Shown: positions 47,167-63,441 of the stretch, one piece after another
Position numbering within the stretch: position 1 is the first letter of the stretch
Layout: the number at the start of each line of letters is the position of its first letter
NCBI GenBank assembly: GCA_041650935.1
Contig: JBAZKH010000001.1
Coordinates: 640,911 to 704,910, forward strand
DNA from: Candidatus Omnitrophota bacterium
GTDB taxonomy: Bacteria > Omnitrophota > Gorgyraeia > 2-01-FULL-45-10
Reading direction: 5' to 3'
Length of the DNA: 64,000 bases
Notes under the pieces: model-generated
The model's input: only the letters and a program-made list of their open reading frames with translations
The model's database searches: none
What the model was told of the DNA's origin: nothing
Position numbers and translations under genes: made by a program

Positions 47167-47595
47167 TCAGTTATCGTTATTTTTGAAGGAGACCGCGAGA
47201 CTGAATGGAAGCTGTACGCCGTCCAGCGTATCAGGGAAAGACGGGAACGGAGACGCCTCCCGTATGCTTAAGACCGCGACATCGATGAGCTTCCTGTTTT
47301 TGGTCGAGCCGGCCGTATCGACATCCAGCCTGTATAACGAACCGTCGTGATTCAGGATGAAGAAGAGGTTGACGTCGCCGTTATGGTAATAGCTCCTGTA
47401 GTTACGTTTAAGTTCTTTAAGTATCTTTTCCCTGATTACGTGGTAATAATTGATATACTCCGTCGTCTCTTTCTGGTATAAAATCTGGTAGGATCGCATA
47501 TCGTCCTCCAGGCTAAAATAAGCAAAGCCCGCCTGCGAAAATAAAGCTACCAGCGCCGCGCATAAAACAAGGATCTTTTTCATCCCTTTCCTCAA
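47167..47595 (-). CDS. secreted protein with TonB C-terminal-like domain (no TM/Pro-rich region)
   Basis: Signal peptide, then VDTAGSTKNRKLIDVAVLSIREASPFPSFP resembling the TonB-C fold. Sits directly downstream of the TonB-dependent receptor. Confidence 0.55.
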   Translation of the reverse strand: MRKGMKKILVLCAALVALFSQAGFAYFSLEDDMRSYQILYQKETTEYINYYHVIREKILKELKRNYRSYYHNGDVNLFFILNHDGSLYRLDVDTAGSTKNRKLIDVAVLSIREASPFPSFPDTLDGVQLPFSLAVSFKNNDN

Positions 47596-47605
47596 AAGTT
47601 AAGTA

Positions 47606-49438
47606 TCAAAATTCCGCTTTTATTCCGCCCGACATGGAGAATAACGGCACCGGGTAGTCCCTGACAACCTGATACCGCGCATTGAACAGGTTTTCAAGCG
47701 TCACAAAATATGTAAAGCCTTCCTTGAACTTCTTAGACACGCTCAGCTTTGCATTAAAAAATTTCTTCACTTTTATATTATTCGCGGGGTCATGGAACCT
47801 ATGGTCGACAAATTGTCCGGTCAGGTCACAGATAAGCCCGTTCTTATCTTTATATTTTAACGCTATATCCACCTTACTCACCGGCTGGTAGATAAGATAT
47901 TTGTTCGTCTGGCCGTCTTTGGCCCGCAAATAAGTATACGCGGAATCCAGTTCCAGGTCGCCGGTGAGGACAACTTTACCCTGGACTTCTATGCCGTTTA
48001 TGACCGCCGAATTTATATTTGTCGGCTGCCACAGGACGGCCTGCTGGACCCAGTTGATCAGGTTTAGAAAACTCGACCTGTAATATGTTATGCCTGCCGA
48101 GAATATGTCGCTTATCCGCGTATCGTAGCCGGCCTCGACCGTCCATCCGCGTTCCGGCCGCAAGGCCGGATTGCCGCTGACCCACCCGTCGTTCGGCCAG
48201 TACAGGTCGTTAAAGGTCGGCGCCCTGAATGAGCGGCCCAGCGAAGCGCGGATCGAGTTTTCGTCATTTATCTTATAGAGCCCCGTAAAGCTGGGACTGA
48301 TCTCGGAGCCGAAGTTCGAATAGCGGTCAACCCTGGCGCCGGCGGTCAGTTTCAGGCGCTTGAAGAGCTCGATCTGATTATCCATATAAAACGCCCAGAC
48401 GTTATAGTTATGCTTCGCGCTCGTCGTGCTGTCGTTAAAATTATAAGCATAATCGATGCCCATCAGTAATTTATAGATACTATAGAATTCCTGGGCTATC
48501 TGAGCGTTTATGCCGCTGACTTTGGTCGTCTGGACATCGTTTACGAAAGGAGCCGTATTGTATATGAACTCCAGCCTGTCGTTGATCTGGTATGCTTTTA
48601 CGGAAATATCGGTAGTCGCGTCCGGGGCATAATTCCAGCCGAGGTCGTAGAAACTCCTGTATGTCTTCTGTTTCTGCACGCTCGACGGCATAGTAGTGGA
48701 ACCGGGCGCGCCTGCCCTCGATTGATAGACCCCGGAATTGAATGTCAGGGTATTGTCCGGCCTGATATCATATTCAAGCTTCGCGTTCAGGTCCTTGGAA
48801 TTAAATTCGGAATTTTCCCGGAAGCCATGGTCCTCCTGGTAGTTGCCGCTAACCATATAACCGAGCGCTTTAAACCGCCCGCCGTGCGAGAACGTCTCGC
48901 TAAATTCTTTATAGCTGCCGAAAACAGTGGTCGACTCCGTCTTCTGGCGTTCTTTCGGCGGCTCTTTTGTTATGATATTTATGGTGCCGCCCATCGCCTG
49001 AGAGCCGTAGAGGCTCGAGGACGGGCCGTATACGACCTCTATCCTGTCGATATTATCGAGCGGTATACTGCTGAGGTCTACCTGGCCGTCTCTAGGGCTG
49101 TTGAGAGGCCTGCTATCGATCATTATAAGGACCTGCGCCGGGTTCGCCCCGCGCATCCGGACGGACTTTTGCGCGCCGAGCCCGCCGTAATCGGTTATAT
49201 CCACCGAAGGCAAATTTGTCAGCACGTCGCTCAGGTCCTTGGCGCCCGACGCTTCTATGTCGGCGCGCGTTATCACCTCTATCCTCCTAGGCGAATCGCC
49301 CTGCCGCTCTTCCATCCTGGACGGAGTCACTACTATCTTTTCGAGCTTTATCTTCTCCGCAAAAGATGAAGTACCCGTGAAAAATACCACCGCAAGCCCT
49401 CCTGCCGCCATTATTACCGCTCTTCTTGACTTTAGCAT
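47606..49438 (-). CDS. TonB-dependent outer-membrane receptor (BtuB-like by context)
   Basis: 610 aa. Signal peptide, TonB box EKIVVTPSR, plug domain, and a C-terminal beta-barrel ending in an aromatic residue (...GGIKAEF). Confidence 0.85.
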   Translation of the reverse strand: MLKSRRAVIMAAGGLAVVFFTGTSSFAEKIKLEKIVVTPSRMEERQGDSPRRIEVITRADIEASGAKDLSDVLTNLPSVDITDYGGLGAQKSVRMRGANPAQVLIMIDSRPLNSPRDGQVDLSSIPLDNIDRIEVVYGPSSSLYGSQAMGGTINIITKEPPKERQKTESTTVFGSYKEFSETFSHGGRFKALGYMVSGNYQEDHGFRENSEFNSKDLNAKLEYDIRPDNTLTFNSGVYQSRAGAPGSTTMPSSVQKQKTYRSFYDLGWNYAPDATTDISVKAYQINDRLEFIYNTAPFVNDVQTTKVSGINAQIAQEFYSIYKLLMGIDYAYNFNDSTTSAKHNYNVWAFYMDNQIELFKRLKLTAGARVDRYSNFGSEISPSFTGLYKINDENSIRASLGRSFRAPTFNDLYWPNDGWVSGNPALRPERGWTVEAGYDTRISDIFSAGITYYRSSFLNLINWVQQAVLWQPTNINSAVINGIEVQGKVVLTGDLELDSAYTYLRAKDGQTNKYLIYQPVSKVDIALKYKDKNGLICDLTGQFVDHRFHDPANNIKVKKFFNAKLSVSKKFKEGFTYFVTLENLFNARYQVVRDYPVPLFSMSGGIKAEF

Positions 49439-49469
49439 CTTCTCTTTCCTCCTGTTTCGCGAGAGTACT

Positions 49470-49640
49470 CACCTTTTTAAGAGCGTGATCGACCGGGCTA
49501 TATAGTGAATAGTGTATAGTGGATAGCGAATAGTAAGTCTGGTTGACTTTTAGGCCTATGCACTCTCCGCTAGCCGCTATTCACTAAAATTACCGTTGCG
49601 CGACAGCGCCTGGGATCTCACCAGGACTTCCTTCACTTGC
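49470..49640 (-). promoter_or_regulatory. possible second (degenerate) cobalamin riboswitch aptamer preceding the receptor gene
   Basis: Minus strand: GAAGGAAGTCCTGGTGAGATCCCAGGCGCTGTCGCGCAACGGTAA resembles the Cbl core (AAGGGAAnCCGGTGAAAATCCGG...CCCGCCACTGTAA). Followed by a B12-box-like AGTCAACCAGACTTAC and alternative pairings around the AGGAGG SD. Confidence 0.4.
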
Positions 49641-49661
49641 TCCAGGTTTTTAACTTCGCTT

Positions 49662-50336
49662 TTATGCGTATTTTTTAATATCCAAAAACCAATGCTTCCA
49701 GTACCCTTCTTTTAAGACCGGTTCGGCATCCAATATCCTGACCGGCTCCTTAAATATCGGGCCGTCTACTACCAGAGTATGGAACTCCCCGTTCTCCCCG
49801 CAGGGGCAGACTCCTTTCGCTTTGAATTCAGCCGCCAGATCCATATCCAGGAACCTGCCGACATACTCCTTCCCGAGTTTATCGGCCTGACAGCTCACTA
49901 TTATGGTCTTAAAGCCAAGGGCGGTAAATTCACCGACCAGGCTCATCGGATCGCGCTGCCACAGAGGCTCGACAGGCGAGACCCCCATATCGCCGCAGAC
50001 CCTTTCGACCCAATTTACCATGTCGGCAAGATAGATGTCGCCAAAGACCACGGTTTTGAAACCTTTAGCCCTAAAACCGGATACAGCCTCCCGGAACTCT
50101 TCCTCGTATTTCTTCATATCGGCAGTCACTTCTTTCTGGACTAAAGGGATCCCGATCTTTTGAGCCTGCAGAGAAAGGAGTTCCGACTCGATGCCGTGAA
50201 AACATCCGCGCCGGGATTCCCGCGAAATAAAAGTCAGGAGATACTTAACGTCGTATCCGTCGTTCATCGCTTTGTAGCAGGCGAGACAGCTGTCCTTGCC
50301 GCCGCTCCAGGAAGATATAGCCGCTACCCTATCCAT
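49662..50336 (-). CDS. PP-loop ATP pyrophosphatase of the DUF71 / Dph6-MJ0570 family
   Basis: 224 aa. SGGKDS PP-loop at the N-terminus. Start overlaps the cobS stop by 13 nt. Confidence 0.75.
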   Translation of the reverse strand: MDRVAAISSWSGGKDSCLACYKAMNDGYDVKYLLTFISRESRRGCFHGIESELLSLQAQKIGIPLVQKEVTADMKKYEEEFREAVSGFRAKGFKTVVFGDIYLADMVNWVERVCGDMGVSPVEPLWQRDPMSLVGEFTALGFKTIIVSCQADKLGKEYVGRFLDMDLAAEFKAKGVCPCGENGEFHTLVVDGPIFKEPVRILDAEPVLKEGYWKHWFLDIKKYA

Positions 50337-51076
50337 AAAACCGTCCTTTCCAGGATCGCAATACCGAACAGGACGGCTACTTCGGTTATTTCGCTTACCG
50401 CACCGATCGTGTCTCCGGTAATGCCCCCTATTTTTCTTTTTATTAATGCTCCCGCCATGTATGCGAATAAAACCGTCATTCCTAAAAGAACCGTCCCCGC
50501 TGTCCCGGCTATCAAAAAGACCACCGCCAGCGCCGAGAGCATTGCCGCCGCCGCTATACTTTTCTTTTTTCCGTCGATAAAGGCCCTGGCCTTGCCCTCA
50601 ACCCTTGCGTATGGGAACGCATATAATGAAACAACCATCGACGACCTGCCCAGCACACACATAAGGACGAGCGCCGTCTCTTTGGCCGTGCCTATTGCCG
50701 AAATAAATGCCACTTTAAGCATCACGACTGAGATGAGCGCAAGTACGCCCATTACGCCCGCATGCGGATCGCGCATGATATTCAGCATACCTGCCCTCTC
50801 CTTTCCGCTGAAGAGCGCGTCGCAGGTATCCGATAACCCGTCGAGATGCATGCCTCCGGTCAATAGTACGAGCAGGACAACTATAATTACGCTAGATGTA
50901 AAAGTCCCGAATTGGACGGCGGTCAATAAAAGACTCGCCGCGGCCAGCACCATCCCCAGCAGCAGCCCTACGACAGGAAAAAAAGCCGCGGCGCCGGCAA
51001 GGTCCTTTCCCGTCATGCGCTTTATCCGGATGGGGATTACCGTAAGAAACTGCGCCGCCGCCAGGAGGCTCTTCAT
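50324..51076 (-). CDS. cobS: adenosylcobinamide-GDP ribazoletransferase (cobalamin synthase)
   Basis: 250-aa polytopic membrane protein; CobS family conservation at the N-terminus (AAQFLTVIP). Confidence 0.88.
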   Translation of the reverse strand: MKSLLAAAQFLTVIPIRIKRMTGKDLAGAAAFFPVVGLLLGMVLAAASLLLTAVQFGTFTSSVIIVVLLVLLTGGMHLDGLSDTCDALFSGKERAGMLNIMRDPHAGVMGVLALISVVMLKVAFISAIGTAKETALVLMCVLGRSSMVVSLYAFPYARVEGKARAFIDGKKKSIAAAAMLSALAVVFLIAGTAGTVLLGMTVLFAYMAGALIKRKIGGITGDTIGAVSEITEVAVLFGIAILERTVLWIG

Positions 51077-51080
51077 ATCG

Positions 51081-52139
51081 TCACGAAACCTTTTTAGAAA
51101 CGCTTGCGCTTTCGAATGTCGCCATCTCGGAGAGTATCTTTGCGGAGGCGTCTATAAGGCAAAGCGCGAGCGCCGAGCCCGTGCCCTCGCCCAGCCTAAG
51201 GTCGAGATCCAATACAGGTTTAAGGCCCAGCTCCGCCAGGATAAATTTATGCCCGCTCTCGACCGAACAATGGCTCGCTATCATGTAATCTTTTACCGTC
51301 GGATGCAGTTTGTACGCTACAAGCGCGGCCGCGCCCGAAATAAAACCGTCGATAACCACCGGCACCCTCCTGGCAGATGCCGCAAGTATTATGCCCGCCA
51401 GGCCGCCTATTTCAAACCCGCCAACCTTCATCAGGACATCGATAGCGTCTTCAGGGTCGGGGCGATTTACATCCAAAGCCTTCTCGACGATCCTTATCTT
51501 ACCGGCAAGCGCCTTATCATCGAGACCGGCGCCTCTGCCCGTAACTTCTTTGACGGGCCTGCCGGTAAAGAGAGCCGTTATCGCGCTTGCGGCGGTAGTG
51601 TTGCCTATCCCCATCTCGCCCGTGCAGACTATATCTATACCTTTTTTGAATTCCGACTCAAATATATCTATCCCCGACCCTATGGCCTTTAGCGCTTCCG
51701 CGCGCGTCATGGAAGGACCCTTGACCATATTCCGCGTCCCGTAATTTATCTTCCTTATAATAAGGCCCGCGCCGGCCTTGATATCCTCGGCAACCCCCAT
51801 ATCGACCACCACGACCCTGGCGCCCGCGTGCCTTGCCAGGACGTTGATAGCCGCCCCGCCCCGTAAAAAATTATAGACCATCTGGGCGGTCACCGCTTTT
51901 GGATACGGGCTCACCCCCTCGTCGGTAACGCCGTGATCGCCGGCCATCGTGAAGATGACCTTATTTGCCAGTGGAGGCGTTTCGCTCCCCGTCATCCCCG
52001 TAATGCTTTTGATCAATTCCTCCAGCCTCCCAAGACTCCCCAGCGGCTTTGTAAGATTATCGAGCCTGCTTTGCGTCTTTGCCATTACGGCGCGATCGAG
52101 CGCTCCGATCGATCTCCTGACGCGATCCAGCTTCTCCAT
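51081..52139 (-). CDS. cobT: nicotinate-nucleotide--dimethylbenzimidazole phosphoribosyltransferase
   Basis: GDHGV, the GEMGIGNTT motif, and overall CobT length. Confidence 0.9.
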   Translation of the reverse strand: MEKLDRVRRSIGALDRAVMAKTQSRLDNLTKPLGSLGRLEELIKSITGMTGSETPPLANKVIFTMAGDHGVTDEGVSPYPKAVTAQMVYNFLRGGAAINVLARHAGARVVVVDMGVAEDIKAGAGLIIRKINYGTRNMVKGPSMTRAEALKAIGSGIDIFESEFKKGIDIVCTGEMGIGNTTAASAITALFTGRPVKEVTGRGAGLDDKALAGKIRIVEKALDVNRPDPEDAIDVLMKVGGFEIGGLAGIILAASARRVPVVIDGFISGAAALVAYKLHPTVKDYMIASHCSVESGHKFILAELGLKPVLDLDLRLGEGTGSALALCLIDASAKILSEMATFESASVSKKVS

Positions 52140-52655
52140 CTACTTTATCCTCAACGGTATACCGGATATCATAAAAACCATCCGGTCCGATCTTTCCGCC
52201 GCGATCTTATTTATCCGGCCGGCGATATCCCGGAATTTCCGGCCCAATTTTGTATCCGGAACTATCCCGAGCCCAACCTCATTCGATACTATAGCGGAAC
52301 AGCCCTTTCGCTTTTTAAGGGCCGCGATCGCAGAGATCGTCTCTTTTTCAATGATCTCCGGAGACTCTTTTGCGTGCATCATATTCGATACAAAAAGAGT
52401 AAGACAGTCTATGATGATGAAGTCATGCCCGGCGGGAAGGGTCCCGGCCAGCCGCGCCAGACGCCGCGGCTCTTCGTAAGTTACCCAGTTCTTCGGCCTC
52501 TCGCTCCTGTGCCTCTTTATCCGCGCGGCCATTTCGTCATCGAGCGCTTCGCAGGTCGCGATGAAAGCCGGGTTCTTCGCTTTAGCGGCAAGCGTAAGGG
52601 CGTAGCTGCTCTTTCCGCTTCTTGCGCCGCCGACTATGAACGTTATCTTTCCCAT
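52140..52655 (-). CDS. cobU: adenosylcobinamide kinase / adenosylcobinamide-phosphate guanylyltransferase
   Basis: P-loop GGARSGKSS at the N-terminus of a 171-aa protein. Confidence 0.88.
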   Translation of the reverse strand: MGKITFIVGGARSGKSSYALTLAAKAKNPAFIATCEALDDEMAARIKRHRSERPKNWVTYEEPRRLARLAGTLPAGHDFIIIDCLTLFVSNMMHAKESPEIIEKETISAIAALKKRKGCSAIVSNEVGLGIVPDTKLGRKFRDIAGRINKIAAERSDRMVFMISGIPLRIK

Positions 52656-53250
52656 CGTTTAGATGAGCCGTATCATTTAACAATACGGCCTTAGCCTTTC
52701 CTCTTATGAATTCTATTACCGTAAGGCTCGTGTGCCCGGGAACGAAGTCCCGGCGCTTGAGCGCGCCCAGCATCTCGCCGGCAATGATATTTATCACGCC
52801 GCCATGGGTCACTATCGCGACCGCGTCATCCTCTTTGCGGCGGGTTATCTTTTTAAAGGCCTTAAGTACCCTTTTCTTGAATGCCGAAGGAGTTTCGCCG
52901 CCGGGTATCTTGACACCGAACGGGTCGGCCAGCCATTTAATATGGAGCCGCGGGTACCGGGCCATGATCTCGTCATACGTAAGCCCTTCGAAGATACCGA
53001 AGCATATCTCTTTTAAGCCGGGCTCGGACTTGAGGGGCCTGTCGCCGAATATTATCCGCGCAGAACCGATCGCCCGTTTCCTGTCGCTTGTGTAAACAGC
53101 GCCTATATCTACGTCCTTAAGGCGGCGGGCGAGTTTTTTCGCCTGCGCCCGGCCTTTCGCGTTAAGGTCCGTATCGCTATGCCCCTGGTACCTGCCGAGA
53201 CGGTTCCAGTCCGTCTCCCCGTGACGTATAAGTATTATTTTTTTAGCCAT
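52582..53250 (-). CDS. cobC: alpha-ribazole-5'-phosphate phosphatase (histidine phosphatase family)
   Basis: LIRHGETDWN catalytic RHG motif. Start set at MAKKIILIRHGE. 74-nt overlap with cobU. Confidence 0.75.
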   Translation of the reverse strand: MAKKIILIRHGETDWNRLGRYQGHSDTDLNAKGRAQAKKLARRLKDVDIGAVYTSDRKRAIGSARIIFGDRPLKSEPGLKEICFGIFEGLTYDEIMARYPRLHIKWLADPFGVKIPGGETPSAFKKRVLKAFKKITRRKEDDAVAIVTHGGVINIIAGEMLGALKRRDFVPGHTSLTVIEFIRGKAKAVLLNDTAHLNDGKDNVHSRRRKKRKEQLRPYACR

Positions 53251-53261: not shown

Positions 53262-53580
53262 AGGATAAATAAAAATCCCCACACCTTCGCTTCACGAAAG
53301 TATGGGGCAAGTTCCCTGTTCTACTAAAACCCACACATGACGATGCTCGCACGGCATCGCACTGCTATCATATGGGCAGGTCTTCTGACTACCCCGGCCT
53401 TATCGGCTGCCTTCCCATTCCGAAAAATGCGGAAAAGTGGCATGATTCACCGACAGGCTCCTCTTAATAACGCAAGAGGCCGGGGCTACAGCGGCGGGAC
53501 CGTTTCCGTTTTGCGCAAACTTTGCCAAGCAGCGCTTGCTCGGAATTCCCTTTTAAGCCCTTTCGGGCGCCCATATAGCT
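53262..53580 (-). promoter_or_regulatory. cobalamin (AdoCbl) riboswitch with intrinsic terminator controlling cobC-cobU-cobT-cobS and downstream genes
   Basis: Minus strand contains AAAAGGGAA, CGGAAACGGTCCCGCCGCTGTAGCC (CCCGCCACTGT core), GGGAAGGC and the B12 box AGTCAGAAGACCTGCC (plus coords 53374-53390). Then a hairpin CCCCATAC...GTGTGGGG plus U-run ATTTTTATTT (plus coords 53266-53307) directly 5' of the cobC start. Confidence 0.8.
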
Positions 53581-53656
53581 TTATCTGTCAAACAGCCAGA
53601 GATAGGGAGATTTTACCCTAAAAAATTTATATGTCAAGTAATATCGTAATCATGAA

Positions 53657-55267
53657 TTACGACTTTTTGTACACCACGTTGTTTGAATAAGTAACGTTTC
53701 CTGCCGCATCCATCGCTGCTGCCCTAACCTTGTAAGATCCGGCAGATAATCCCGACACGTCCCACGTAGTAGAATAGCTGTTACCCGCGGTATTGTAGTC
53801 GCATCCGATCGCTCTCCATATCGCACCATCTTCATATTCGAAACCGACATTCTCCATCGTGGCATCCGAGATACGGGAAGAAGCCGTACACGCTACGGTC
53901 AGCTGATTACCGGATCCCGACACGGCTAGATTCCCGGGTTTTGCCGGAGCCGTTGTATCCGGGGCATAACCATCGGCCTCGAACTGCACTTCGTCTATAT
54001 AGAAATCGCCGGCAAATACCCCGTAGTCCCAATCACCCGGCCATCGGGACATCCAGCCATCCCTTGTGAATACGATCTCGCCGATCGAATTAGTCTTATT
54101 CACCGCGGTTATGGAAGTCCCCTGCCCCGCCCAGCCCTTCGTAGTGAACTCGGACAACGGCACCGTAACCTTTGTCCATGAAGTATTCGTGAAAGTATAC
54201 TTGAAAAAATGGAAATAATTATTAAGGTACGTCGGGCAGTGTAATTCCATTTTAAGACATCTCACGTTAGCCGAGCTCGACTTACACGAAAATGTTATGT
54301 TGCTGTACGCGCTGAAATTCCTGGGCTGCGGAGTCGACCCCGAATCACCGCCGCCAACAACGGAGGCGTACGCGTAATAGCGATGGTCGGCCGGAGTATC
54401 GGTATCCCAGCAATCCTGGAAATGGAAGTCTAATCCGTTTGCATAATCGACGTACTGGCTGTTTGTGTAGCTAAAACTACCGTGGACAGGACTGGTCTCG
54501 GAAGCGCCGCCGCAATTCCCCCCTAACGCGTTCTTGCTGACCTTGTCGCCAAAGTGATCGATCCTTACAAAACCCAGGAATTGTTTGCCGAAACATATAT
54601 TATCGATATAAACCGTGCTGTTTTTGGGACTACCGTTTAAAGCGGCTTGCGTATTCTCGAAAGTTATTGCGATCTCTTTGATCCGTGACCGGTCTGTAAT
54701 GTTGGCAAAAGCATCCAGCGGAATAACCACTTTCCGCCATGCCGTAGCAACTCCGCCGTCGAGATAATCCGTAACATAGACCGAGGCATTGTAATCGTTA
54801 TTATGGCCTACTGACTGTGTCGGATCGAAGTTTGTATGATGAAGCTCTATCTTAAAATATTCGCCGCCATTTAATCCCTTGACCCAGAAGGACAAATAAT
54901 TATAATCGCTTATGCTGTCGCCTCCAAGGGATGTGTAATATGTTGCCCAGCTATCCGTGTAATTAACATCATAGGTCAACTGCAGGGAGTGGCCCGCGTT
55001 GCCGTAAGCGGCGGTATCACCTACGTAACTTCCGACGATAGACGCGGTAGTGTCGCTTTTGGCAAGCGTACCGCTTATATTACCCCAGAGATTTACGCTG
55101 GAGCCGCTATTGAAATCATCGAGCATCGGCCCGGGAGTCGCAGAGACCGTCCCCTCGCTTTTAATCGCGACCGCGTCCGCCAGCGGCTGATATGCCGAGA
55201 TATGGCCATTATCCCGGATCATGATAACCGCGGCGATCGATATCAAAATAATAAGTTTTACCTTCAT
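53657..55267 (-). CDS. secreted protein with two beta-sandwich CBM-like modules and a C-terminal Fn3/Ig-like domain
   Basis: 536 aa with a signal peptide. The repeated LDDFNSG.../DHFGD... modules resemble carbohydrate-binding beta-sandwiches. 4-nt overlap with the upstream gene. Confidence 0.5.
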   Translation of the reverse strand: MKVKLIILISIAAVIMIRDNGHISAYQPLADAVAIKSEGTVSATPGPMLDDFNSGSSVNLWGNISGTLAKSDTTASIVGSYVGDTAAYGNAGHSLQLTYDVNYTDSWATYYTSLGGDSISDYNYLSFWVKGLNGGEYFKIELHHTNFDPTQSVGHNNDYNASVYVTDYLDGGVATAWRKVVIPLDAFANITDRSRIKEIAITFENTQAALNGSPKNSTVYIDNICFGKQFLGFVRIDHFGDKVSKNALGGNCGGASETSPVHGSFSYTNSQYVDYANGLDFHFQDCWDTDTPADHRYYAYASVVGGGDSGSTPQPRNFSAYSNITFSCKSSSANVRCLKMELHCPTYLNNYFHFFKYTFTNTSWTKVTVPLSEFTTKGWAGQGTSITAVNKTNSIGEIVFTRDGWMSRWPGDWDYGVFAGDFYIDEVQFEADGYAPDTTAPAKPGNLAVSGSGNQLTVACTASSRISDATMENVGFEYEDGAIWRAIGCDYNTAGNSYSTTWDVSGLSAGSYKVRAAAMDAAGNVTYSNNVVYKKS

Positions 55268-56085
55268 TTTGTAATCACTTCCCCCGAGTTATTTACTTCA
55301 AACCGTTTCCGCGATAGGGCAGTCTTTTCTTTTGTATACATTTTACCATATTTCATAATTATTTCCACCGTATACATACCCGCTTTAAGCTCAGGGACAT
55401 CCCAGGAGACCGAGTATGTATTGGTCTGGCACGGTAACATGCTTTTACCACAGGGCAGGTCCAGCTTCTTTATCTCTACTCCTTTTTCGTTCTTAATAAG
55501 CGCCTCCATAGACGCGGGTAATATGTGCACATTGCCGGAATTCGCGACCGATATCATTATATTCAAGGATTCTTTTCCGTCTTTAAGCAATTTCGAAACA
55601 GCAACATCTTTTATCTTTGCTTCCGGCGTTTCGGTTCCTTTTATAGCTACATACAGCACTGCCCCCAGCCTTGAGCGAATACCGGTTTCCGGGGTGGCGC
55701 CTGCCTCGACTACCACCGAAGAAAAATATACCTGGACAGCTACCTCACCCTTTACATTGGTCGGAGTCCTCACTTTAAGTTTGATTTTTTTTATTTCCCT
55801 GGGTTTTAGGTCAAATTCATAAGTATCCAGGGTTATCCAGGACTTTACGGGTAGATCCTTATAGCCATGCGCATACGCACCCCAATTTTCCGGCTCAACG
55901 ACTACATGCATAGTACCTTCTGTATCGTTCTGCGCATAGTAATCGATTACCGTTACTTCACCTGCAGGAAGACGCGTTTCAAGGCGCGCAGGTCCGATAA
56001 CCAGTGCGTAGGAATTGACACAGGTCAGAAAAAAACTCACTGCCAGGATACAAAAAGATATAGTATATTTACGCATCTTTACCAT
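55264..56085 (-). CDS. secreted Ig-like (PapD/MSP-fold-like?) protein, putative periplasmic partner/chaperone
   Basis: 273 aa with a signal peptide. All-beta composition. Start 7 nt after the giant gene stop. Confidence 0.4.
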   Translation of the reverse strand: MVKMRKYTISFCILAVSFFLTCVNSYALVIGPARLETRLPAGEVTVIDYYAQNDTEGTMHVVVEPENWGAYAHGYKDLPVKSWITLDTYEFDLKPREIKKIKLKVRTPTNVKGEVAVQVYFSSVVVEAGATPETGIRSRLGAVLYVAIKGTETPEAKIKDVAVSKLLKDGKESLNIMISVANSGNVHILPASMEALIKNEKGVEIKKLDLPCGKSMLPCQTNTYSVSWDVPELKAGMYTVEIIMKYGKMYTKEKTALSRKRFEVNNSGEVITK

Positions 56086-56092
56086 CCCGCCT

Positions 56093-59000
56093 TTATGTGT
56101 GATAAATATCTACCGTCAACCTGCTCGTACGGTACTCCTGGGCAGGCGCGCCGCTAAAATCTGCCGCCAAATAGACATAAATAGCATTACCTACCGCGGT
56201 CGTCCTGGGCCAATAACCCGGAGGCGGATATGCCAGTGGAACCGGCGCGCCAAGCTCGCCGTTACTATTGATCAAAGTCCGGTAATTACGCACATACTGG
56301 TCCTTCGACCAATCAGGGTCGCTCTTATCCATCACAAAGGCAAATTCCGCCCTGTCTCCGTCATTGACCGTAGTATCGAATTCCGGGGTTTCGGCCCCAT
56401 TATAATAACCCTTCCGGGCATCCCAGACTTGCCATATCATCGGAACTCTATAGCCCGAATTCGACACTCCTATTAATCCGTTTGCCTGGGCGCCTGTTCC
56501 GGAATATTTTGGATATGCATTATCCGCCTTATTGTCGGTATATATTTGTATACCCCATGTCCCGGAACTCTTATAATCTATCTGCAGATACTGGTTTGCA
56601 AGAACTTTTGGCTGGGAGGCTGTGGCCTGCCCGAAATCTACTCCTGTGGCCTGGATACCGGACGCGCCGTCCAGTATCGCGATATCCAATTTGTCACCGG
56701 TGAGATCGACGGGGTCAAATTCCGCTTCGTCAAAATAGAGAGTGATCGGCTGTAGCGTATCCGCGGAAACAATATCGACTGCCGCTATGCTCGAAAGATT
56801 CACCGCGGCGGGAAAATCACTCAATAAGACGTGCATCTCCTGCCATACTCCGCCGGTTGCGACCGTAAACGTCATTTGCGCTTCCGTATTGCCGGAATCC
56901 CGCAGGCGAAGCGTAAATTTTTCTCCGCCATTCTCTCCCATAACCCTGAAAGATATCATGGTCGCGTCTGATATATTTGAGTTATTAAGAGCTATCGTAT
57001 TCTTCTGGCCCGGCTGTAAGATTGCTTTGCGCACTTTTCCGGCCGTGCCGTCGTATCTCAACGCGTCGACAAAGACCGTATCTCCTATGGTCAAACCGCC
57101 GTTATCAAGAGTAAGACCTCCGAATACGTTCGGCTCATGTCCGTCGCCGTAATCCAACCGGTATGTGCCCGTAATTATTTTGATCTCGGCGGAATTCGCA
57201 GATTCGGTATTATCGCTCTTTACGGACCTGACCACATAATAATACGGCGTACCATTACTAAGACCGCTGTCTGAATAGGTTACCGCGGGACCATCTACAG
57301 AGCCCGCCATTATATAAGGCCCTCCCTGCGCGCCTGAGCGATATATGTTATATTTTGCCGCGCCGTAAACGGTATTCCACCTCAGATGCGTTTTGTCTTT
57401 ACCAAAGGATGCTCCGATAACTTCGGCCGGCGGTTTAAGGACCGGCGGTATGGCCTGCGTAAGACCAAAACTATCCCACCGTATCCACCCGCTTGGGGCA
57501 GTTGTGGTAATGCCGGGATGATAGAGCGTTATTACATTCCATCCTTCATTGACATAGAATCCTTGCGTGACTACCTGGTCGCCTTCCGAAACCTGACCGT
57601 TGAAGATTAATTCGGAATTATTGACGAATATAACCAGGTTGTTCGACAATTGGTTCTGGGTATCCAAGACCTTAAAAGTGATCGTAGCGTAATCCGTAGT
57701 TTCGTTATAGAAGATTATATTACTAAAATTTTCGGTATCCTTGTCCAGCTCTTGAGAAAACGTATTTATATCGGCCCCTACATAATATGTAGAATCGAGA
57801 CGGTATTTGTTGCCAAAGAACGACTTTGGAGTAGAAGATTCATTACGCGCCATAACCCATGTATCATGAACGGATGGACTCGTTATTTCTATGTTCTGCC
57901 ATGCGAACCATTTGGCGCCGGCGGTACCGCTCTGCCACTGGAAGGCAAGCGTGTTAACCCCGGTCTTTAAGGCCGCGTTGTCTATAGCTATATATTGTAT
58001 AAGCTGCGGGTCGATACTGGAGCTATCATAAGTGAATGTTATCGACCCACCGTCGATATCGTTCAACTTTATACCGAGCGTAACCGTATGACTCCCGAGC
58101 GCTTTATTCACAAATTGGTGTATTGTAAGTAGATACGCCTTGTTTTCTACGGAATCCAGGTTAAACTGTACGGTCTGCGAAGGATTTTCCGCGCTCACCT
58201 GCCCCATATGAAAATTCGAATTACTATCCGGGTCATCAACCGTAATAGCACATACATTGTCGGCAGCGAATCCTAATTTCTGTATTATGGTATCCTTCAA
58301 GGTCTTGCCCGGCTCAAGCTCGAAACCTCCGAAATTATTCCATATAAGACCGGAATCGCGGTTCTCCGCCATAATAAGCGATATGCCCATATCGATAGCG
58401 CAATAGAACGACGCTATCGGGAACGGCTCCTCATTCAGGCTACTGCCCATCCTGAACGAATTTACAAAACCGTAATCTCCCCATATCTGATAACCATAAA
58501 CGTCATACAGCTCCTTCATCTTCTTAAGGGCGCGCTGGCACTCATCCGGCAGCATGGCTATCGATCCTCCGGCCGCCGAAGGATGGACCGTACCATCGGC
58601 TCCACGCACGTCTCCCGACGGAATCGCAACGCCTGCCGGCGGGGCACCGTAAACATTGTAACTGAATCCACTGCTGTACCCGCTTGTCAATCCCCAGAGA
58701 TCTTCCTCACCCGCATAATTCGCAATATTATCGTTGCAGAACTGCTTATTTGCCTTTGTCGCCTCAACAGAGTTCTGCCACCAGTCAATACCTTCCTTAT
58801 CATATAGCGGGAGACCTGAGGCATCTTTAAAATTAAAGAAGGCCTGCGCATACTGATAAACGAAGAGCGGGCCGAACCACGACTTTACCATAGGGTTACT
58901 GTCCGCATTGTAAGTGCCAAGCTCGCGCCTGAATGCGTAGAATGTTTCGGCGGGTATCGCGTGATCGGAATCCGGAGCCGCCGCCGCAAGGATGTAGATC

Positions 59001-62000
59001 AGCATACATTCGCTTGTGTAATCCCAATGGTCGAAGAATTGATTCGCGCCGGTCCGGTCGGGGTCCCATGCGTGATACAGCTGGTTATAATACGGATTTG
59101 CCACTTCGTGGCCGTCCTGGACGGTTTTGTTTTGATCCAGGAAAGCTTTCCAGTTGATATTTTTGTATATCAGCAGGGCCTTGTCTTTCAAATCTCCGCC
59201 GAAATATTCACCGGCAGTCAGGACGCCGGCAACGAGTATTGCGGTATCGACCGTCGAAACTTCCGAGCCGGCCCATCTTTCGCCGGTTTCGATATTGACG
59301 TAATGATAGAATAAACCGTCCCTTCCCCATGTTGAAAATGTAGACGGATCAGCCGAGTTCTGATTACCCTGTATCTCGAGCAGTTTATCGAATATCAGCG
59401 TAACCCTTGCTTTCAGTTTGTCCGGGTCCGCCTCCTGCCAATCCGGATTTGTCCCGTCGCCGTAATGTTCGGCCGCAACGCACATTGCCGCAAGACCGAA
59501 TCCGGTAGCCGCCATGCTCGCCATATTGTAATGCGTGTCCCATGTCGCGTTACGGTTGGCAGGATCGACCGGCAATCTGTCACGCACAAATCCCGTGGCC
59601 GGATTATCGGTCTCATGCCAGAAATATTTGAATGAGGTTATGAGTATCTGCTCCTCGATAGTCAGACTCGCTGTAAAGAGAGCCGTTACCGACTTATTAG
59701 CGTTCATTGTTATGGTAGCGGGGTTTGTAGAGCCGGTTAGGTCGCCTGACCAATTGGAGAACGAGTATCCGCCAGCCGGCGCAGCTGTCAGGGTAACTAC
59801 TTCACCAGCAGTATAAGTGGTCTTATCTGGTGACTTCGCTATGGAACCGTTAGAGGCCGTAAGAGTGAGAGTGTACGCAGGTACTTCAGTGAAGCTCGCG
59901 GCTATCGTGTGGTTTGTAGTTACATTAGTGAATGTGTAAGTGCCGCCCGAGAGCGTAACAGGCGCGCCGTCCACTAATACCTGGTCGATATTGTAACCTG
60001 TGTCGGCAGTAACCGTGAATGTCTGGCTTGCGCCATTGGCTACGCTTACAGCGCCTGAAGGCGATATGTCACCGCCGGTACCCGCTGTAGCGTTGATCGT
60101 AAGAGCCGGCAGTACTGTAAACAGAGCCGTTACCGACTTATTAGCGTTCATTGTTATGGTAGCGGGGTTTGTAGAGCCGGTTAGGTCGCCTGACCAATTG
60201 GAGAACGAGTATCCGCCAGCCGGCGCAGCTGTCAGGGTAACTACTTCACCAGCAGTATAAGTGGTCTTATCTGGTGACTTCGCTATGGAACCGTTAGAGG
60301 CCGTAAGAGTGAGAGTGTACGCAGGCGTCGAACTCTCCGTAACCGTCACATGCCATTCGAACGGTGTGGAGACTGCCGGGGTGCCGTTATCGGTCAGTAC
60401 TACCTTTATATAGTACTCGCCCTCCGGTAGAGCCAATGCGCCGCTCTGCGCGTTCTGTAGTTCCGCAAGCTCTGTATACGAACCTCCTGCCGGCTTCTTG
60501 TACCACTTGAAACTTACCGATTGCCCGCTGTCGGGATCATGATACTGTTTTACTTTAAACTCACAACTTTTAACCTCGCCCGGATGGATAGTTATGTTAA
60601 CATCCGCCGCGGCAGGGGTGATCTCGTCGATAACCGGAGCGTTATTACCGGTAACCGTCACATGCCACTCGAACTGCGTAGACATCGCCGGAGTGCCGTT
60701 ATCGGTCAGGACTACCTTTATATAGTGTTCACCCTCCGCGAGAGCCAATAGACCGCTCTGCGCGTTCTGTAGTTCCGTAAGCTCTGTATACAACCCGCCT
60801 GCCGGCTTCTTATACCACTTGAAACTTACCGATTGCCCGCTGTCGGGATCATGATACTGCGTTACTTGGAACGACTGCTGTTTAGTCTCGCCGGCCTTAA
60901 CGTTAATATTGACTTCGGCCGCGGCGGGGGTAAGCGCATCTATGACCGGCGCGTGATTCGCGGCATCGCTGACGACTTCGACCGCCCAGGTAAACGAGGA
61001 AGAATTACCATTACAATCCGTAGCGGTTACGACGATCGTATAGTCGCCCGTGCCGAATATAAGCGAGAGTATGGAAAATTCACTCGGCGTACCGTTTATC
61101 ACTTCCCCGTTCACCGTCCACGTAATCGTTACCGGCGTATCGGGATCTGAAGCCGATGCCATAAATACCGTAGATTCGTTCTTGTGCAATGTTACGGAAG
61201 ATTCGCTGGGAGTTACCGTCAATACGGGAGGCGTACCGCTGACTGTAATCGTTATATCTTCGCTATCCTGCAATGCGCTGGAATTATCCTCCCGCGCGAT
61301 GAAACGGAGATTCTTAACCGTGTCCTCATCGCTTTCGGCAGGAGTCCAGCTGAATACTTTATTATCGAACGCCGCGCCGACGGGTAGGCCTTCGGCTAGA
61401 TAGAGAAGCGGGTCGCCATTAGGATCGGCGGCATTGATATTGAATATAAGTTCTTTCCCCACGCCGATCGTCTTATTTCCTATAGGATCCAGCACGGGCG
61501 GCTTATTTACCGCACTGCTCACCAATATGCGCAGAGCGCTTCCGCCCACTATGATATCCAGCGCGCCGTCGCCGTTAATATCCGCCAGTTGGACATTTTG
61601 GCCTCCGATAAGCGCCGGGGTGCTCCGGTAATCCGGCAGTTTTATAGACGCGTCGATATTTTTGAATGAGCCTGCCTTATCATTCATATAAAGCGATATG
61701 CTGTCCTCTCCAAGCACTACCGCGTCCAGCCGGCCGTCGCCGTTCAGGTCTCCCAGCTTAATGTCTCTGGAATTAAAATCGTTCGCAGGCATCAGGTCGG
61801 CCGTCTTATCCGCGAATGAGCCGTCGCCATTATTCATAAGAAGCAGGTTTTGTGTAAAACATGCCACGACAAGATCTATCTTTCCGTCGCTATTTACATC
61901 GCCCGTATCCAGGACTTCGCTATATTCGCTATCGTCGGGAAGAAGCGCATTCGTAGCATCGGTAAACCCGCCTGAGCCGTTATTTATATAGACACGATTC

Positions 62001-63352
62001 CGTAAATCGCTGGAACCGACGATCTCGTTATTGGTCGTAAGGATATCGAGCCGGCCGTCGCCGTCGACGTCGCAGAATCGTATATCGGAACTGCCGTCGA
62101 TAACAGCGGGCAGGTTAAATTGCGTATCTTGTGAGAATTTGCCGGCACAATCGTTGACGAGGAGGAGGTCCTGCGAGCCATGGACCGCTACCACAATGTC
62201 GAGATAACCGTCGCCGTTTACATCGCCCAGATCGAGAGCGGCCGCGTCCTGTGCCAGAGCCGGAGTGCCGTCGGAGACGTAGGTAAACACGCCTGCGCCG
62301 TTATTCGAAAATAACTTTATAGCCTGGCCCTCGGAGTACGTAAGGAAGAGTTCCGGGAAACCGTCACCGTTAATATCGCCAAGGGCCGCATCGGTAATAA
62401 TAGAAGCGCTATTCTTAATCTCATCCGGCAGTGCCCCGTTGGTAAATCTACCGCTTCCATCGTTAACAAGCAGGTATACCTTCTTCAAAACCGTATCGAC
62501 TACCAGAAGATCCAGGTCCTTGTCGCCGTCTACATCGCCGGTCCTGATTATAGATGAATCGCTTAAACTGATCGCGGAGTCAAGGAGCGCTGTTGTCTGA
62601 TCTACAAAGACCGACCCGGCCGTATCGCCGAGTATATCGAACATCCCCATCTTGCCGCTTACCGTATCCACGCTCACCGTAATATCGGTAAACCCTTCGG
62701 GAAGCCCTTGCGGAACGGCGGCGCAAATCTGGTTAGCCGATACCACCGTTACCGTATCGGACTCGGTATCGCCGAATTTAACCGTATCTTTGGCTGTAGC
62801 GCTGAAACCTGCGCCCTGTATAGTAACGGCAACACCCGGGATAGCGCTATTTGGAGTTACGCCGGTCACGTATACCGGCGCCGGGCTGGACGAACTGCCT
62901 TCAGAACCGGTCCCGCTATCACCATCACCCGGATCATCAGTTGTGGTGGTATCTAACACGCTGCTCAGACCATAGACCACACTATCATCGTCCGAAGAAT
63001 TGGACTTTGAAGGCGCTTCAGGAGTATCGCTGGAGTTTGCTTGCAAAGAAGGGCTGGTAGATACAGTTTTTTCCTGGGGAGTATCCGGGCTATCATAATC
63101 CGATGTGTTGTTATTAGCGGTAGAATTATTCAATGGCGTAAAGTTCTGTAAGGCTGTGCCATTCCTGGATGAAGCAAGGGGAACCGAAATATTTGTCTGC
63201 GAAGATTCTTTGTCCGGCGATTGATACGCTTCCGCTACTAAAGGCGCGGCGGTAGGGGCATGGAGGATTATCTCTTTATCCCGTATCGAGACAAGAGTAA
63301 GGATCGAGATCGCCGCCAATATCCAAAACTTGATCCTTCGCATCGTCCTCAT
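56093..63352 (-). CDS. giant (2419 aa) secreted multidomain surface protein
   Basis: Domains seen: signal peptide; S/T/N-rich linker; IPT/TIG; at least 7 FG-GAP/VCBS repeats (D.DGDG..D); tandem PKD-like domains; 3 InlB-B-repeat-like domains; a six-hairpin glycosidase-like domain; Fn3. Conserved C-terminal tail AIYVYLAADFSGAPAQEYRTSRLTVDIYHT. The likely start is the ATG at 63343 (MRRIKFW), which has a better SD. Confidence 0.8.
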   Translation of the reverse strand: MRTMRRIKFWILAAISILTLVSIRDKEIILHAPTAAPLVAEAYQSPDKESSQTNISVPLASSRNGTALQNFTPLNNSTANNNTSDYDSPDTPQEKTVSTSPSLQANSSDTPEAPSKSNSSDDDSVVYGLSSVLDTTTTDDPGDGDSGTGSEGSSSSPAPVYVTGVTPNSAIPGVAVTIQGAGFSATAKDTVKFGDTESDTVTVVSANQICAAVPQGLPEGFTDITVSVDTVSGKMGMFDILGDTAGSVFVDQTTALLDSAISLSDSSIIRTGDVDGDKDLDLLVVDTVLKKVYLLVNDGSGRFTNGALPDEIKNSASIITDAALGDINGDGFPELFLTYSEGQAIKLFSNNGAGVFTYVSDGTPALAQDAAALDLGDVNGDGYLDIVVAVHGSQDLLLVNDCAGKFSQDTQFNLPAVIDGSSDIRFCDVDGDGRLDILTTNNEIVGSSDLRNRVYINNGSGGFTDATNALLPDDSEYSEVLDTGDVNSDGKIDLVVACFTQNLLLMNNGDGSFADKTADLMPANDFNSRDIKLGDLNGDGRLDAVVLGEDSISLYMNDKAGSFKNIDASIKLPDYRSTPALIGGQNVQLADINGDGALDIIVGGSALRILVSSAVNKPPVLDPIGNKTIGVGKELIFNINAADPNGDPLLYLAEGLPVGAAFDNKVFSWTPAESDEDTVKNLRFIAREDNSSALQDSEDITITVSGTPPVLTVTPSESSVTLHKNESTVFMASASDPDTPVTITWTVNGEVINGTPSEFSILSLIFGTGDYTIVVTATDCNGNSSSFTWAVEVVSDAANHAPVIDALTPAAAEVNINVKAGETKQQSFQVTQYHDPDSGQSVSFKWYKKPAGGLYTELTELQNAQSGLLALAEGEHYIKVVLTDNGTPAMSTQFEWHVTVTGNNAPVIDEITPAAADVNITIHPGEVKSCEFKVKQYHDPDSGQSVSFKWYKKPAGGSYTELAELQNAQSGALALPEGEYYIKVVLTDNGTPAVSTPFEWHVTVTESSTPAYTLTLTASNGSIAKSPDKTTYTAGEVVTLTAAPAGGYSFSNWSGDLTGSTNPATITMNANKSVTALFTVLPALTINATAGTGGDISPSGAVSVANGASQTFTVTADTGYNIDQVLVDGAPVTLSGGTYTFTNVTTNHTIAASFTEVPAYTLTLTASNGSIAKSPDKTTYTAGEVVTLTAAPAGGYSFSNWSGDLTGSTNPATITMNANKSVTALFTASLTIEEQILITSFKYFWHETDNPATGFVRDRLPVDPANRNATWDTHYNMASMAATGFGLAAMCVAAEHYGDGTNPDWQEADPDKLKARVTLIFDKLLEIQGNQNSADPSTFSTWGRDGLFYHYVNIETGERWAGSEVSTVDTAILVAGVLTAGEYFGGDLKDKALLIYKNINWKAFLDQNKTVQDGHEVANPYYNQLYHAWDPDRTGANQFFDHWDYTSECMLIYILAAAAPDSDHAIPAETFYAFRRELGTYNADSNPMVKSWFGPLFVYQYAQAFFNFKDASGLPLYDKEGIDWWQNSVEATKANKQFCNDNIANYAGEEDLWGLTSGYSSGFSYNVYGAPPAGVAIPSGDVRGADGTVHPSAAGGSIAMLPDECQRALKKMKELYDVYGYQIWGDYGFVNSFRMGSSLNEEPFPIASFYCAIDMGISLIMAENRDSGLIWNNFGGFELEPGKTLKDTIIQKLGFAADNVCAITVDDPDSNSNFHMGQVSAENPSQTVQFNLDSVENKAYLLTIHQFVNKALGSHTVTLGIKLNDIDGGSITFTYDSSSIDPQLIQYIAIDNAALKTGVNTLAFQWQSGTAGAKWFAWQNIEITSPSVHDTWVMARNESSTPKSFFGNKYRLDSTYYVGADINTFSQELDKDTENFSNIIFYNETTDYATITFKVLDTQNQLSNNLVIFVNNSELIFNGQVSEGDQVVTQGFYVNEGWNVITLYHPGITTTAPSGWIRWDSFGLTQAIPPVLKPPAEVIGASFGKDKTHLRWNTVYGAAKYNIYRSGAQGGPYIMAGSVDGPAVTYSDSGLSNGTPYYYVVRSVKSDNTESANSAEIKIITGTYRLDYGDGHEPNVFGGLTLDNGGLTIGDTVFVDALRYDGTAGKVRKAILQPGQKNTIALNNSNISDATMISFRVMGENGGEKFTLRLRDSGNTEAQMTFTVATGGVWQEMHVLLSDFPAAVNLSSIAAVDIVSADTLQPITLYFDEAEFDPVDLTGDKLDIAILDGASGIQATGVDFGQATASQPKVLANQYLQIDYKSSGTWGIQIYTDNKADNAYPKYSGTGAQANGLIGVSNSGYRVPMIWQVWDARKGYYNGAETPEFDTTVNDGDRAEFAFVMDKSDPDWSKDQYVRNYRTLINSNGELGAPVPLAYPPPGYWPRTTAVGNAIYVYLAADFSGAPAQEYRTSRLTVDIYHT
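59679..60325. repeat. intragenic tandem duplications in the giant gene
   Basis: 59679-59881 and 60123-60325 are identical over 203 bp (period 444 bp = 148 aa). 60339-60547 and 60651-60859 are about 90% identical (period 312 bp = 104 aa). Confidence 0.8.
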
Positions 63353-63370: not shown

Positions 63371-63441
63371 TAAAAAACCGGACTACCAATCCTGATCGAT
63401 TTGGTAATCCGGCTGCCCAGTACCAATATACCGGTACTGGG
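63371..63441 (-). terminator. tandem stem-loops with a U-tract in the leader of the giant gene (terminator/attenuator-like)
   Basis: Minus strand: GCCCAGUACC-loop-GGUACUGGGC, then CCGGAUUACCAA-AUCGAUCAGGA-UUGGUAGUCCGG followed by UUUUUUAU about 20 nt before the SD/ATG. Confidence 0.4.

Follow-up and report, generated by a model that had tools for sequence, protein, structure and literature searches.

A DUF71-B12 PP-loop ATPase in a riboswitch-led cobalamin salvage operon of a Candidatus Omnitrophota bacterium

Most microorganisms that use vitamin B12 cannot make it and scavenge a chemically messy pool of corrinoids. Genes of the DUF71-B12 type, encoding PP-loop ATP pyrophosphatases, are among the most widespread genes of cobamide uptake and salvage operons without a demonstrated reaction, and 4584 DUF71 cluster representatives are present in a large protein library. 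One DUF71 gene (49662..50336, (-) strand) lies in the stretch of DNA considered here, 64,000 nucleotides (nt) of contig JBAZKH010000001.1 from a Candidatus Omnitrophota bacterium (assembly GCA_041650935.1, positions 640,911 to 704,910; hereafter the window), and the question raised by this locus is what such an enzyme does among genes for cobalamin salvage. The answer favoured on balance is that it is the DUF71-B12 enzyme of a riboswitch-led corrinoid uptake and salvage module and would adenylate a corrinoid carboxylate to give an amide. The role in corrinoid salvage by itself is highly probable, and the formation of an amide on a corrinoid by way of an adenylated carboxylate is put forward more tentatively. 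The B12-salvage link of bacterial DUF71 proteins is robust, but it has been in print since 2012 (PMC3541065); what is new here is a riboswitch-controlled example from the Omnitrophota and its contrast with a sister lineage that makes cobamides de novo, and no new concept is added.

The protein and its subgroup

The open reading frame (ORF) encodes a product of 224 residues with the N-terminus MDRVAAISSWSGGKDSCLACY. It matches PF01902 (Diphthami_syn_2, formerly DUF71/ATP_bind_4) with an E-value of 2.7e-51 and 174.6 bits against a gathering score of 23.2, and the match is near full length, covering residues 7-223 of the protein and positions 4-217 of the 219 in the profile. The SGGKDS PP-loop lies near the N-terminus at residues 11-16, and an ENGEFH motif is found at residues 181-186. 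In an alignment of 106 diverse relatives drawn from 50%-identity clusters, S11, G12, G13, K14, D15 and H47 are conserved in at least 90% of the sequences and E181, G183, E184 and H186 are invariant. An AlphaFold2 model built with the same number of diverse relatives as input has a mean predicted local distance difference test score of 97.4, and in Foldseek comparisons it superposes on PH1257 (2d13) and PF0828 (3rjz, 3rk0, 3rk1) with template modelling scores of 0.81-0.86 at 29-30% identity; the modelled fold is thus that of the archaeal Dph6-type structures, the two-domain DUF71 fold. The original prediction, made from the letters of the window alone, had placed a DUF71 PP-loop enzyme at exactly this position, and the profile, the loop and the fold all bear it out.

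The DUF71/COG2102 family was split by de Crécy-Lagard, Forouhar, Brochier-Armanet, Tong and Hunt (Biol Direct 2012, PMC3541065) into Dph6 and a second group named DUF71-B12, which is defined by an ENGEF/YH motif. Dph6 is the only characterised DUF71 enzyme and is an ATP-dependent carboxylate amidoligase (PMC3541065, PMC3585130), and the Glu that stands at the position of the His of ENGEFH was assigned to catalysis near the diphthine site (PMC3541065). In the alignment to PF0828 and PH1257, the ENGEFH of the window protein lies opposite EGGEFE, so that Glu188 of PF0828 is replaced by His186. The signature ExGE[FY]H[TS] is present in 127/127 readable sequences among the top 150 cluster representatives, the stretch being unreadable in the remaining 23, which are mostly short or partial. 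The window protein thus shows both marks of the subgroup, namely ENGE[FY]H with His at PF0828 position 188 and clustering with genes for B12 transport and salvage, and it almost certainly belongs to DUF71-B12.

It may be asked at this point whether the protein has a B12 role at all, or whether it is a true diphthine-ammonia ligase, or an unrelated PP-loop enzyme of tRNA modification or iron-sulfur (Fe-S) thiolation, that stands beside cob genes by chance. The best NCBIfam model is indeed TIGR03679 (Dph6_archaeal), and the identical protein in NCBI, from a Candidatus Omnitrophota metagenome-assembled genome (MAG) on a 710-kb contig, is entered as 'diphthine--ammonia ligase'. However, the score against that model is 143.9 bits, under the equivalog cutoff of 197.3, and the catalytic Glu is replaced by the invariant His, which together rule out a true Dph6; bacteria, moreover, are reported to be without diphthamide (PMC3541065). 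A thiolase-type PP-loop enzyme dependent on an Fe-S cluster is likewise ruled out, because no conserved Cys cluster is found in the 106 relatives, the highest value being that of C179 at 78%. The part of the question that concerns chance is answered by the neighbourhoods described below.

In NCBI records the name 'diphthine--ammonia ligase' is common for bacterial DUF71 members, a few being called 'Dph6-related ATP pyrophosphatase', and the former name on bacterial proteins is likely a propagating over-annotation. Unusual architectures occur among the His-type DUF71 proteins (P0122, P0160, P0195, P0222, P0139); those seen include a tandem double DUF71 protein of 458 residues and a DUF71 domain at the C-terminal end of a 2455-residue protein. 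As judged by eye, extra acetyltransferase-like regions are present at the N-terminus of P0160 and the C-terminus of P0195, and P0222 has an extra N-terminal region that looks methyltransferase-like.

The operon and its counterparts in other genomes

The operon is led by a Cobalamin riboswitch aptamer (RF00174, 53358..53589, (-)), a full-length match with 76.3 bits against a gathering score of 31.5 and an E-value of 5e-17, which is the only riboswitch at the B12 operon to pass the Rfam threshold and which stands upstream of cobC at the head of the whole unit. On its 5' side a consensus scan gives a sigma-70-like promoter (53610..53637, (-); TTGACA, 16 nt, TAAAAT; 11/12 matches), and between the aptamer and the cobC start there is a terminator-like hairpin (53267..53307, (-)) with a 14-bp stem and a T-run, which is likely the expression platform of the riboswitch. 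Then follow, all on the (-) strand, a cobC-like gene for an alpha-ribazole phosphatase (52582..53250; His_Phos_1, 222 residues from the ATG at 53250, the maximal ORF beginning at 53352), whose product reaches 154.5 bits against TIGR03162, slightly under the cutoff of 162.9; cobU for adenosylcobinamide kinase/cobinamide-phosphate guanylyltransferase (52140..52655; PF02283, E 2.5e-54; NF004469, 176.4 bits against a cutoff of 161); cobT for nicotinate-nucleotide-dimethylbenzimidazole phosphoribosyltransferase (51081..52139; PF02277, E 4.3e-138; TIGR03160, 456 bits against 319); and cobS for adenosylcobinamide-GDP ribazoletransferase (50324..51076; PF02654, E 2.1e-52; TIGR00317, 138.4 bits against 110).

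The ATG of the DUF71 gene at 50336 lies 13 nt within the 3' end of cobS, which ends at 50324, the overlap being ATGGATAGGGTAG, and an AAGGA Shine-Dalgarno-like motif is located 7-11 nt 5' of that ATG. The start inside cobS had been predicted to the nucleotide, and the embedding of the gene in a cobalamin salvage operon, likewise predicted, is upheld by the four cob genes upstream, by the overlap and by the RF00174 leader. On the 3' side comes a gene for a BtuB-like TonB-dependent outer-membrane receptor (47606..49438, (-); 610 residues; Plug and TonB_dep_Rec_b-barrel domains), for which the best NCBIfam model is TIGR01779 (TonB-B12) with 226.7 bits, under its cutoff of 599.7. An ORF of 142 residues directly 3' of the receptor (47167..47595, (-)), without a Pfam or NCBIfam match, is possibly the last gene of the unit; the gene in the same position of locus L090 (loci in other genomes are cited by such labels) has a faint TonB_2 match. 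The remaining ORFs of the window that were tested yielded no additional B12 genes, and neither CbiZ nor CbiB is found among the examined ORFs of the window.

In close relatives, with 63-67% identity, the gene order is retained as [Cobalamin riboswitch]-btuFCD-cobC-cobU-cobT-cobS-DUF71-btuB, sometimes with cobA in front. Among other Omnitrophota, locus L089 reads cobA-btuFCD-cobCUTS-DUF71-btuB, L090 reads cobA-btuFCD-cobCUTS-cbiP-DUF71-btuB-TonB-like and L091 reads btuF-TBDR-DUF71-cobCUTS, where TBDR stands for a TonB-dependent receptor. The window operon and those of its Omnitrophota relatives contain cobU and no cbiB or cobD. The closest relative of the window cobS (57% identity) belongs to a sister Omnitrophota lineage (L088), in which the upstream synteny is that of the window, with a giant protein, a CBM30 protein and cobC-cobU-cobT-cobS; 3' of cobS, however, this locus continues with cobD, cbiP, cbiB, a gene for a cobopeptin-type radical S-adenosylmethionine (SAM) enzyme, cbiA and cbiX, that is, with the de novo pathway, and neither DUF71 nor btuB is present within 7 kb. 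Since the de novo locus is without both genes and these uptake loci carry DUF71 together with a receptor gene, DUF71 goes with the uptake version of the module.

The same association was followed across species. A genome scan with one genome per GTDB species gave at least 597 confirmed relatives among the 599 pattern matches listed, and the 8 kb around DUF71 were analysed in the best 80 loci of these, which come from the Omnitrophota, Chloroflexota/Dehalococcoidia, Nitrospirota, Bacteroidota, Acidobacteriota, Desulfobacterota, Planctomycetota, Lentisphaerota and several archaea. The neighbouring ORFs (1082 proteins) were clustered unlabelled first and the largest clusters annotated afterwards. 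The nine largest clusters turned out to be B12 families exclusively: transport families, namely ABC ATPase (27 loci), Peripla_BP_2/BtuF (24), FecCD/BtuC (19) and TonB receptor (18), and cobamide enzymes, namely CobS (14), CobU (13), CobC (12), CobT (11) and CobA/BtuR (8). Clusters of CbiB, CobD aminotransferase and CobQ, with five loci each, are intermixed with small non-B12 clusters (CbpB radical SAM, short-chain dehydrogenase, histidine kinase). A dedicated cobamide biosynthesis gene is present in 31/80 loci, BtuF, BtuC or a TonB-dependent receptor in 30/80, and a cobalamin riboswitch detected by nhmmer in 21/80, 19 of the latter being upstream on the same strand; taken together, 45/80 have at least one of these features within 8 kb. 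Cultured organisms whose locus has such a B12 context include Roseivirga sp. E12 and Lutibacter agarilyticus, and a Thermodesulfovibrio MAG (L038) carries the complete cluster of the late pathway. B12 genes make up 29-30% of the genes directly flanking DUF71 (positions -1 and +1), all on the same strand, and about 6% of those lying three to seven genes downstream. Directly adjoining DUF71 are BtuF, TBDR, CobU (6 loci), CobC and CobS; CbiB never adjoins it in the 80 loci.

A Cobalamin riboswitch passes the Rfam gathering threshold in 18/22 loci scanned, a biased rate since 11 of the 22 had been picked as nhmmer-positive (all 11 were confirmed). In L024 the riboswitch lies 145 nt upstream of DUF71 itself, and in L059, L081 and L086 it leads just a TBDR-DUF71 pair. 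Therefore, the position of DUF71 beside B12 genes is far from chance, and the gene is real and correctly placed; a chance ORF or a chance neighbour of cob genes is ruled out by the hidden Markov model match, the structure model and the synteny kept across phyla. The original prediction had named chance juxtaposition as the outcome to be expected if DUF71 did not co-occur with B12 genes elsewhere, and its neighbourhood check comes out on the side of co-occurrence across phyla. For an enzyme without any B12 role there remain, besides the annotation discussed above, the 35/80 relatives that have no B12 context; but the gene order, the adjacency on one strand and the control by riboswitches are met again in Omnitrophota, Chloroflexota, Nitrospirota, Bacteroidota, Acidobacteriota and others, and this explanation is very improbable.

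A 223-nt spacer separates the DUF71 stop from the receptor, and no match at the Rfam gathering threshold is found in it. It nevertheless contains a probable variant cobalamin riboswitch ahead of btuB (49461..49656, (-)), matching RF01482 (AdoCbl) at 22 bits against a gathering score of 50. Relative to short versions in the Omnitrophota species L002 and L008, the candidate is interrupted by an insertion of about 85 nt (about 49497-49585, (-)), and a near-identical core, GGAAGnCCUGGUnnAnnCCCAGGnnCUGUCGCGCAACGGUAAU ... AGUCCGGUCGACC, is kept at the same position in these two; the insertion-free element of L008 reaches 37 bits (E 1.3e-5) against the same gathering score. Compensatory changes occur in 5/21 predicted pairs, in a comparison of only three sequences (window, L002 and L008). 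The insertion, rich in repeated CACTAT/ATAGTG-like words, may represent the enlargement of a peripheral stem or a repeat element that was inserted. In L005 there is no spacer, the genes for DUF71 and the receptor overlapping by 4 nt. Thus, of the 'riboswitch-associated receptor' originally described behind DUF71, the receptor is there, whereas the riboswitch that passes the threshold leads the operon and the element next to the receptor stays below it.

Some further features of the window and the neighbourhoods may be recorded here. The window cobC and cobU overlap by 74 nt (52582-52655), whereas in relatives cobC encodes 198-200 residues and overlaps cobU by 4 nt; the 222-residue window product has a basic tail of 24 residues, as if translation read through where the normal stop codon had been lost by mutation or assembly error. 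The B12 operon is immediately preceded by a cluster (53657-63352, (-)) that looks like one of giant surface or glycan-binding proteins under c-di-GMP control. A c-di-GMP-I-GGC riboswitch (63399-63488, (-)), matched to RF03167 at 68.8 bits, lies directly 5' of its first ORF, whose product of 2419 residues has a glucoamylase-like domain besides FG-GAP repeats and InlB-type B-repeats; a 273-residue ORF and a 536-residue CBM30/CBM11 protein come next. Furthermore, a radical SAM/SPASM protein, CbpB (TIGR04163, 'rSAM_cobopep', 505-514 bits against a cutoff of 375), described by NCBIfam as a peptide-modifying radical SAM enzyme, recurs within cobamide operons (L002 6640-8134, L010 6339-7697 and L088 11291-12924; also L032, L054, L057 and L067), where it adjoins DUF71, cobU, cobT or cbiB, with an ORF of 52-55 residues 5' of it in L002 and L088.

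The proposed reaction and its alternatives

According to the favoured explanation, DUF71 would be co-transcribed with cobC-cobU-cobT-cobS under the cobalamin riboswitch and made only when cobamides are scarce; in riboswitch-led operons it is presumably co-expressed with the proteins of corrinoid import and loop assembly. The SGGKDS loop would bind ATP, and a side-chain carboxylate of an imported corrinoid, incomplete or partly deamidated, would be adenylated with release of pyrophosphate (PPi). Free ammonia, or possibly an amine, would then displace AMP to leave an amide, and the product would be a cobinamide-type corrinoid to be finished by CobU, CobS, CobT and CobC. The invariant His186, standing for the catalytic Glu of Dph6, would serve in binding or catalysis on the new substrate. 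What is shown is that the PP-loop apparatus for ATP is kept and that the residues near the Dph6 substrate site have given way to another invariant set; continued adenylation of an oxygen nucleophile on the substrate, and a corrinoid as that substrate, are inferred. In its most specific form, an ammonia-dependent, AMP-forming corrinoid carboxylate amidoligase that repairs or completes corrinoids before loop assembly and whose His186 contacts the substrate or the cobalt, the proposal is doubtful.

Amide formation on a corrinoid is favoured because carboxylate amidation is the reaction of Dph6, the only member of the family that has been characterised, and because the immediate neighbours of DUF71 belong to transport (BtuF, TBDR) or are CobU, CobC and CobS, and never include CbiB. 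Free ammonia fits because the protein has no glutaminase domain. An amidation theme is suggested by two kinds of gene in the uptake operons: those for true cobyric acid synthase, scoring above 590 bits against NF001989, stand beside DUF71 in L090, L057, L050, L038 and L071, and AsnB-like genes encoding a synthetase domain only are located directly upstream of it in L042 (7030-8007), L070 (7057-7989) and L032 (3977-4927) and one gene downstream in L047 (1092-1685). The re-amidation of a cobyric-acid-like intermediate, which had been offered as an example in the original prediction, is a chemically reasonable hypothesis and fits some of the context. The AsnB-like proteins themselves have 310-325 residues, are without a glutaminase domain and fall under all equivalog cutoffs; they represent a second adenylating amidoligase-type enzyme in the context of DUF71, and the operons of L032, L042 and L070 are riboswitch-controlled B12 uptake operons.

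The re-amidation idea differs from the proposal already published, by which DUF71-B12 has a role in pseudo-B12 salvage as a functional replacement of bacterial CbiZ (PMC3541065). Such a CbiZ analogue would act on an unwanted lower ligand or on the nucleotide loop, as in pseudo-B12, by removing or bypassing it to give a cobyric-acid-type intermediate, or would act in another route of pseudo-B12 remodelling. It is the sole model with whole-genome phyletic data behind it, for the 2012 paper reports a strict anticorrelation of DUF71-B12 with CbiZ in bacterial genomes, together with the adjacency of 75/102 DUF71-B12 genes to B12 transporter genes and of 18/102 to cbiB (PMC3541065). In the present survey, a Pfam scan of 150 unlabelled neighbours on the same strand did not give CbiZ among the recurrent families; this agrees with mutual exclusion but speaks for neighbourhoods and not for whole genomes. 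CbiB is in the same cluster in 5/80 loci, though never next to DUF71. However, PP-loop ATPases are adenylating ligases, their use as amidohydrolases would be unprecedented, and a reviewer of the 2012 paper already held a ligase to be likelier than a hydrolase (PMC3541065); the ATP-binding residues, needless for a hydrolase, are strictly conserved. Moreover, because the Omnitrophota operons, that of the window included, have cobU and lack the cbiB and cobD through which adenosylcobyric acid would be consumed, the context favours a product that feeds CobU over adenosylcobyric acid, for which CbiB is required. A CbiZ analogue is therefore judged unlikely.

The lack of cbiB can also be turned into a hypothesis of its own. 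Some PP-loop enzymes, such as argininosuccinate synthetase and TilS, take amines larger than ammonia, and DUF71 could in the same manner be a cobyric acid-aminopropanol ligase that adenylates the f-carboxylate and couples (R)-1-amino-2-propanol to it, bypassing CbiB and giving cobinamide for phosphorylation by the CobU kinase. L090, L057 and L050 have cobyric acid synthase, DUF71 and cobU and no cbiB or cobD within range; therefore DUF71 would be the only in-operon consumer of the CbiP product there, and operons such as L090 would become self-sufficient. The frequency of CobU as an immediate neighbour agrees with this. On the other hand, cbiB could be elsewhere in these genomes, DUF71 occurs together with cbiB and cobD in L022, L038, L071 and L076, and several operons consist of transport genes and DUF71 alone (L046, L059, L081, L085 and L086). 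The adjacency to cbiB in 18/102 genomes is likewise unexpected for a substitute of CbiB (PMC3541065). As to cbiB elsewhere, no large DUF71-bearing Omnitrophota contig is found among the top 120 CbiB matches listed, where the single apparent match (8455 nt) is a coincidence and MAGs have many contigs. A CbiB bypass is quite unlikely.

Ring carbonyls are also among the groups that PP-loop enzymes can adenylate, GMP synthetase and tRNA-modifying enzymes being examples, and DUF71 might act on the lower ligand or nucleotide side, adenylating the base or an alpha-ribazole-type intermediate instead of the corrin ring. Its place directly after cobT and cobS in the window would suit this, but DUF71 is associated most strongly with genes for transport (BtuF, TBDR), it occurs in operons without cobT and cobS, and no supporting fusion or context was found, so that this possibility is very hard to credit. 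An ATP:corrinoid adenosyltransferase was considered as well and is ruled out, both by the presence of CobA/BtuR in the same operons (L008, L019, L024, L071, L072, L087, L089 and L090) and by PP-loop chemistry, which cuts ATP between the alpha and beta phosphates.

Several points weigh against the favoured explanation itself. Canonical cobinamide salvage by CobA, CobU, CobT, CobS and CobC needs no extra enzyme. No corrinoid-binding motif has been demonstrated in the DUF71 protein. The 35/80 loci without B12 context within 8 kb carry the same His signature, and the His-type clade may not be of a single function; these loci may hold members with another role, or the B12 genes may be unlinked there, and no alternative recurrent neighbour emerged in them. 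They include L052, L061, L063, L064, L068, L030, L033, L037, L044 and L053, with examples from Tenacibaculum, Algoriphagus, Methanosarcinaceae and Bathyarchaeia. The phyletic anticorrelation with bacterial CbiZ, in addition, suggests pseudo-B12 remodelling over re-amidation (PMC3541065). Finally, the literature searched on DUF71-B12 proteins contains neither a biochemical nor a genetic test, and what it offers is the prediction of 2012 with papers that cite it; the statement of the original prediction that bacterial DUF71 proteins have no assigned function accordingly holds for experiment, but not for hypothesis, as both the B12-salvage role and the corresponding neighbourhood analysis were already in print (PMC3541065).

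The chemistry of DUF71-B12, once settled, would fill a gap in the salvage map, sharpen predictions of which corrinoids a member of a community can use and correct the propagating misannotation of these proteins as 'diphthine--ammonia ligase'. If the amidoligase were true, B12 scavengers would have a new step, and a fourth kind of corrinoid-processing salvage enzyme would stand beside CbiZ, CbiR and CobS-mediated remodelling.

Comparison with known systems

The nearest known system is the DUF71-B12 subgroup itself (COG2102/PF01902; 'Duf71-B12' in SEED), with which the window protein shares ENGE[FY]H with His for Glu188 of Dph6, the PP-loop and ATP-contact residues, the clustering with genes for B12 transport and late cobamide steps and a bacterial host without diphthamide. 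The locus differs in that DUF71 stands fifth in a riboswitch-led unit, behind cobC, cobU, cobT and an overlapping cobS, whereas the 2012 paper stressed adjacency to btuCDF and cbiB; the Omnitrophota are not met in the available sections of that paper, and riboswitches are not mentioned in it (PMC3541065).

With Dph6 (PF0828, PH1257 and yeast Dph6), the protein has in common the fold, SGGKDS, H47 and presumably the adenylation chemistry. Dph6 differs by its catalytic Glu, which is His here, by its context, which is translation and not B12 salvage, and by its substrate, the diphthine of elongation factor 2 (EF-2), which is absent in bacteria. CbiZ resembles DUF71 as an accessory enzyme specific to salvage whose gene goes with btu and cob genes, but there is no relationship in sequence or fold. 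CbiZ hydrolyses without ATP, and its product has to be taken up by CbiB, which the window operon does not encode. The CobQ/CbiP and CobB/CbiA amidotransferases share with the proposed role of DUF71 the ATP-dependent amidation of corrin carboxylates, and CobQ adjoins DUF71 in several salvage operons; these enzymes, however, have another fold and a fused glutaminase domain and are ADP-forming, whereas DUF71 is without a glutaminase domain and would give AMP and PPi.

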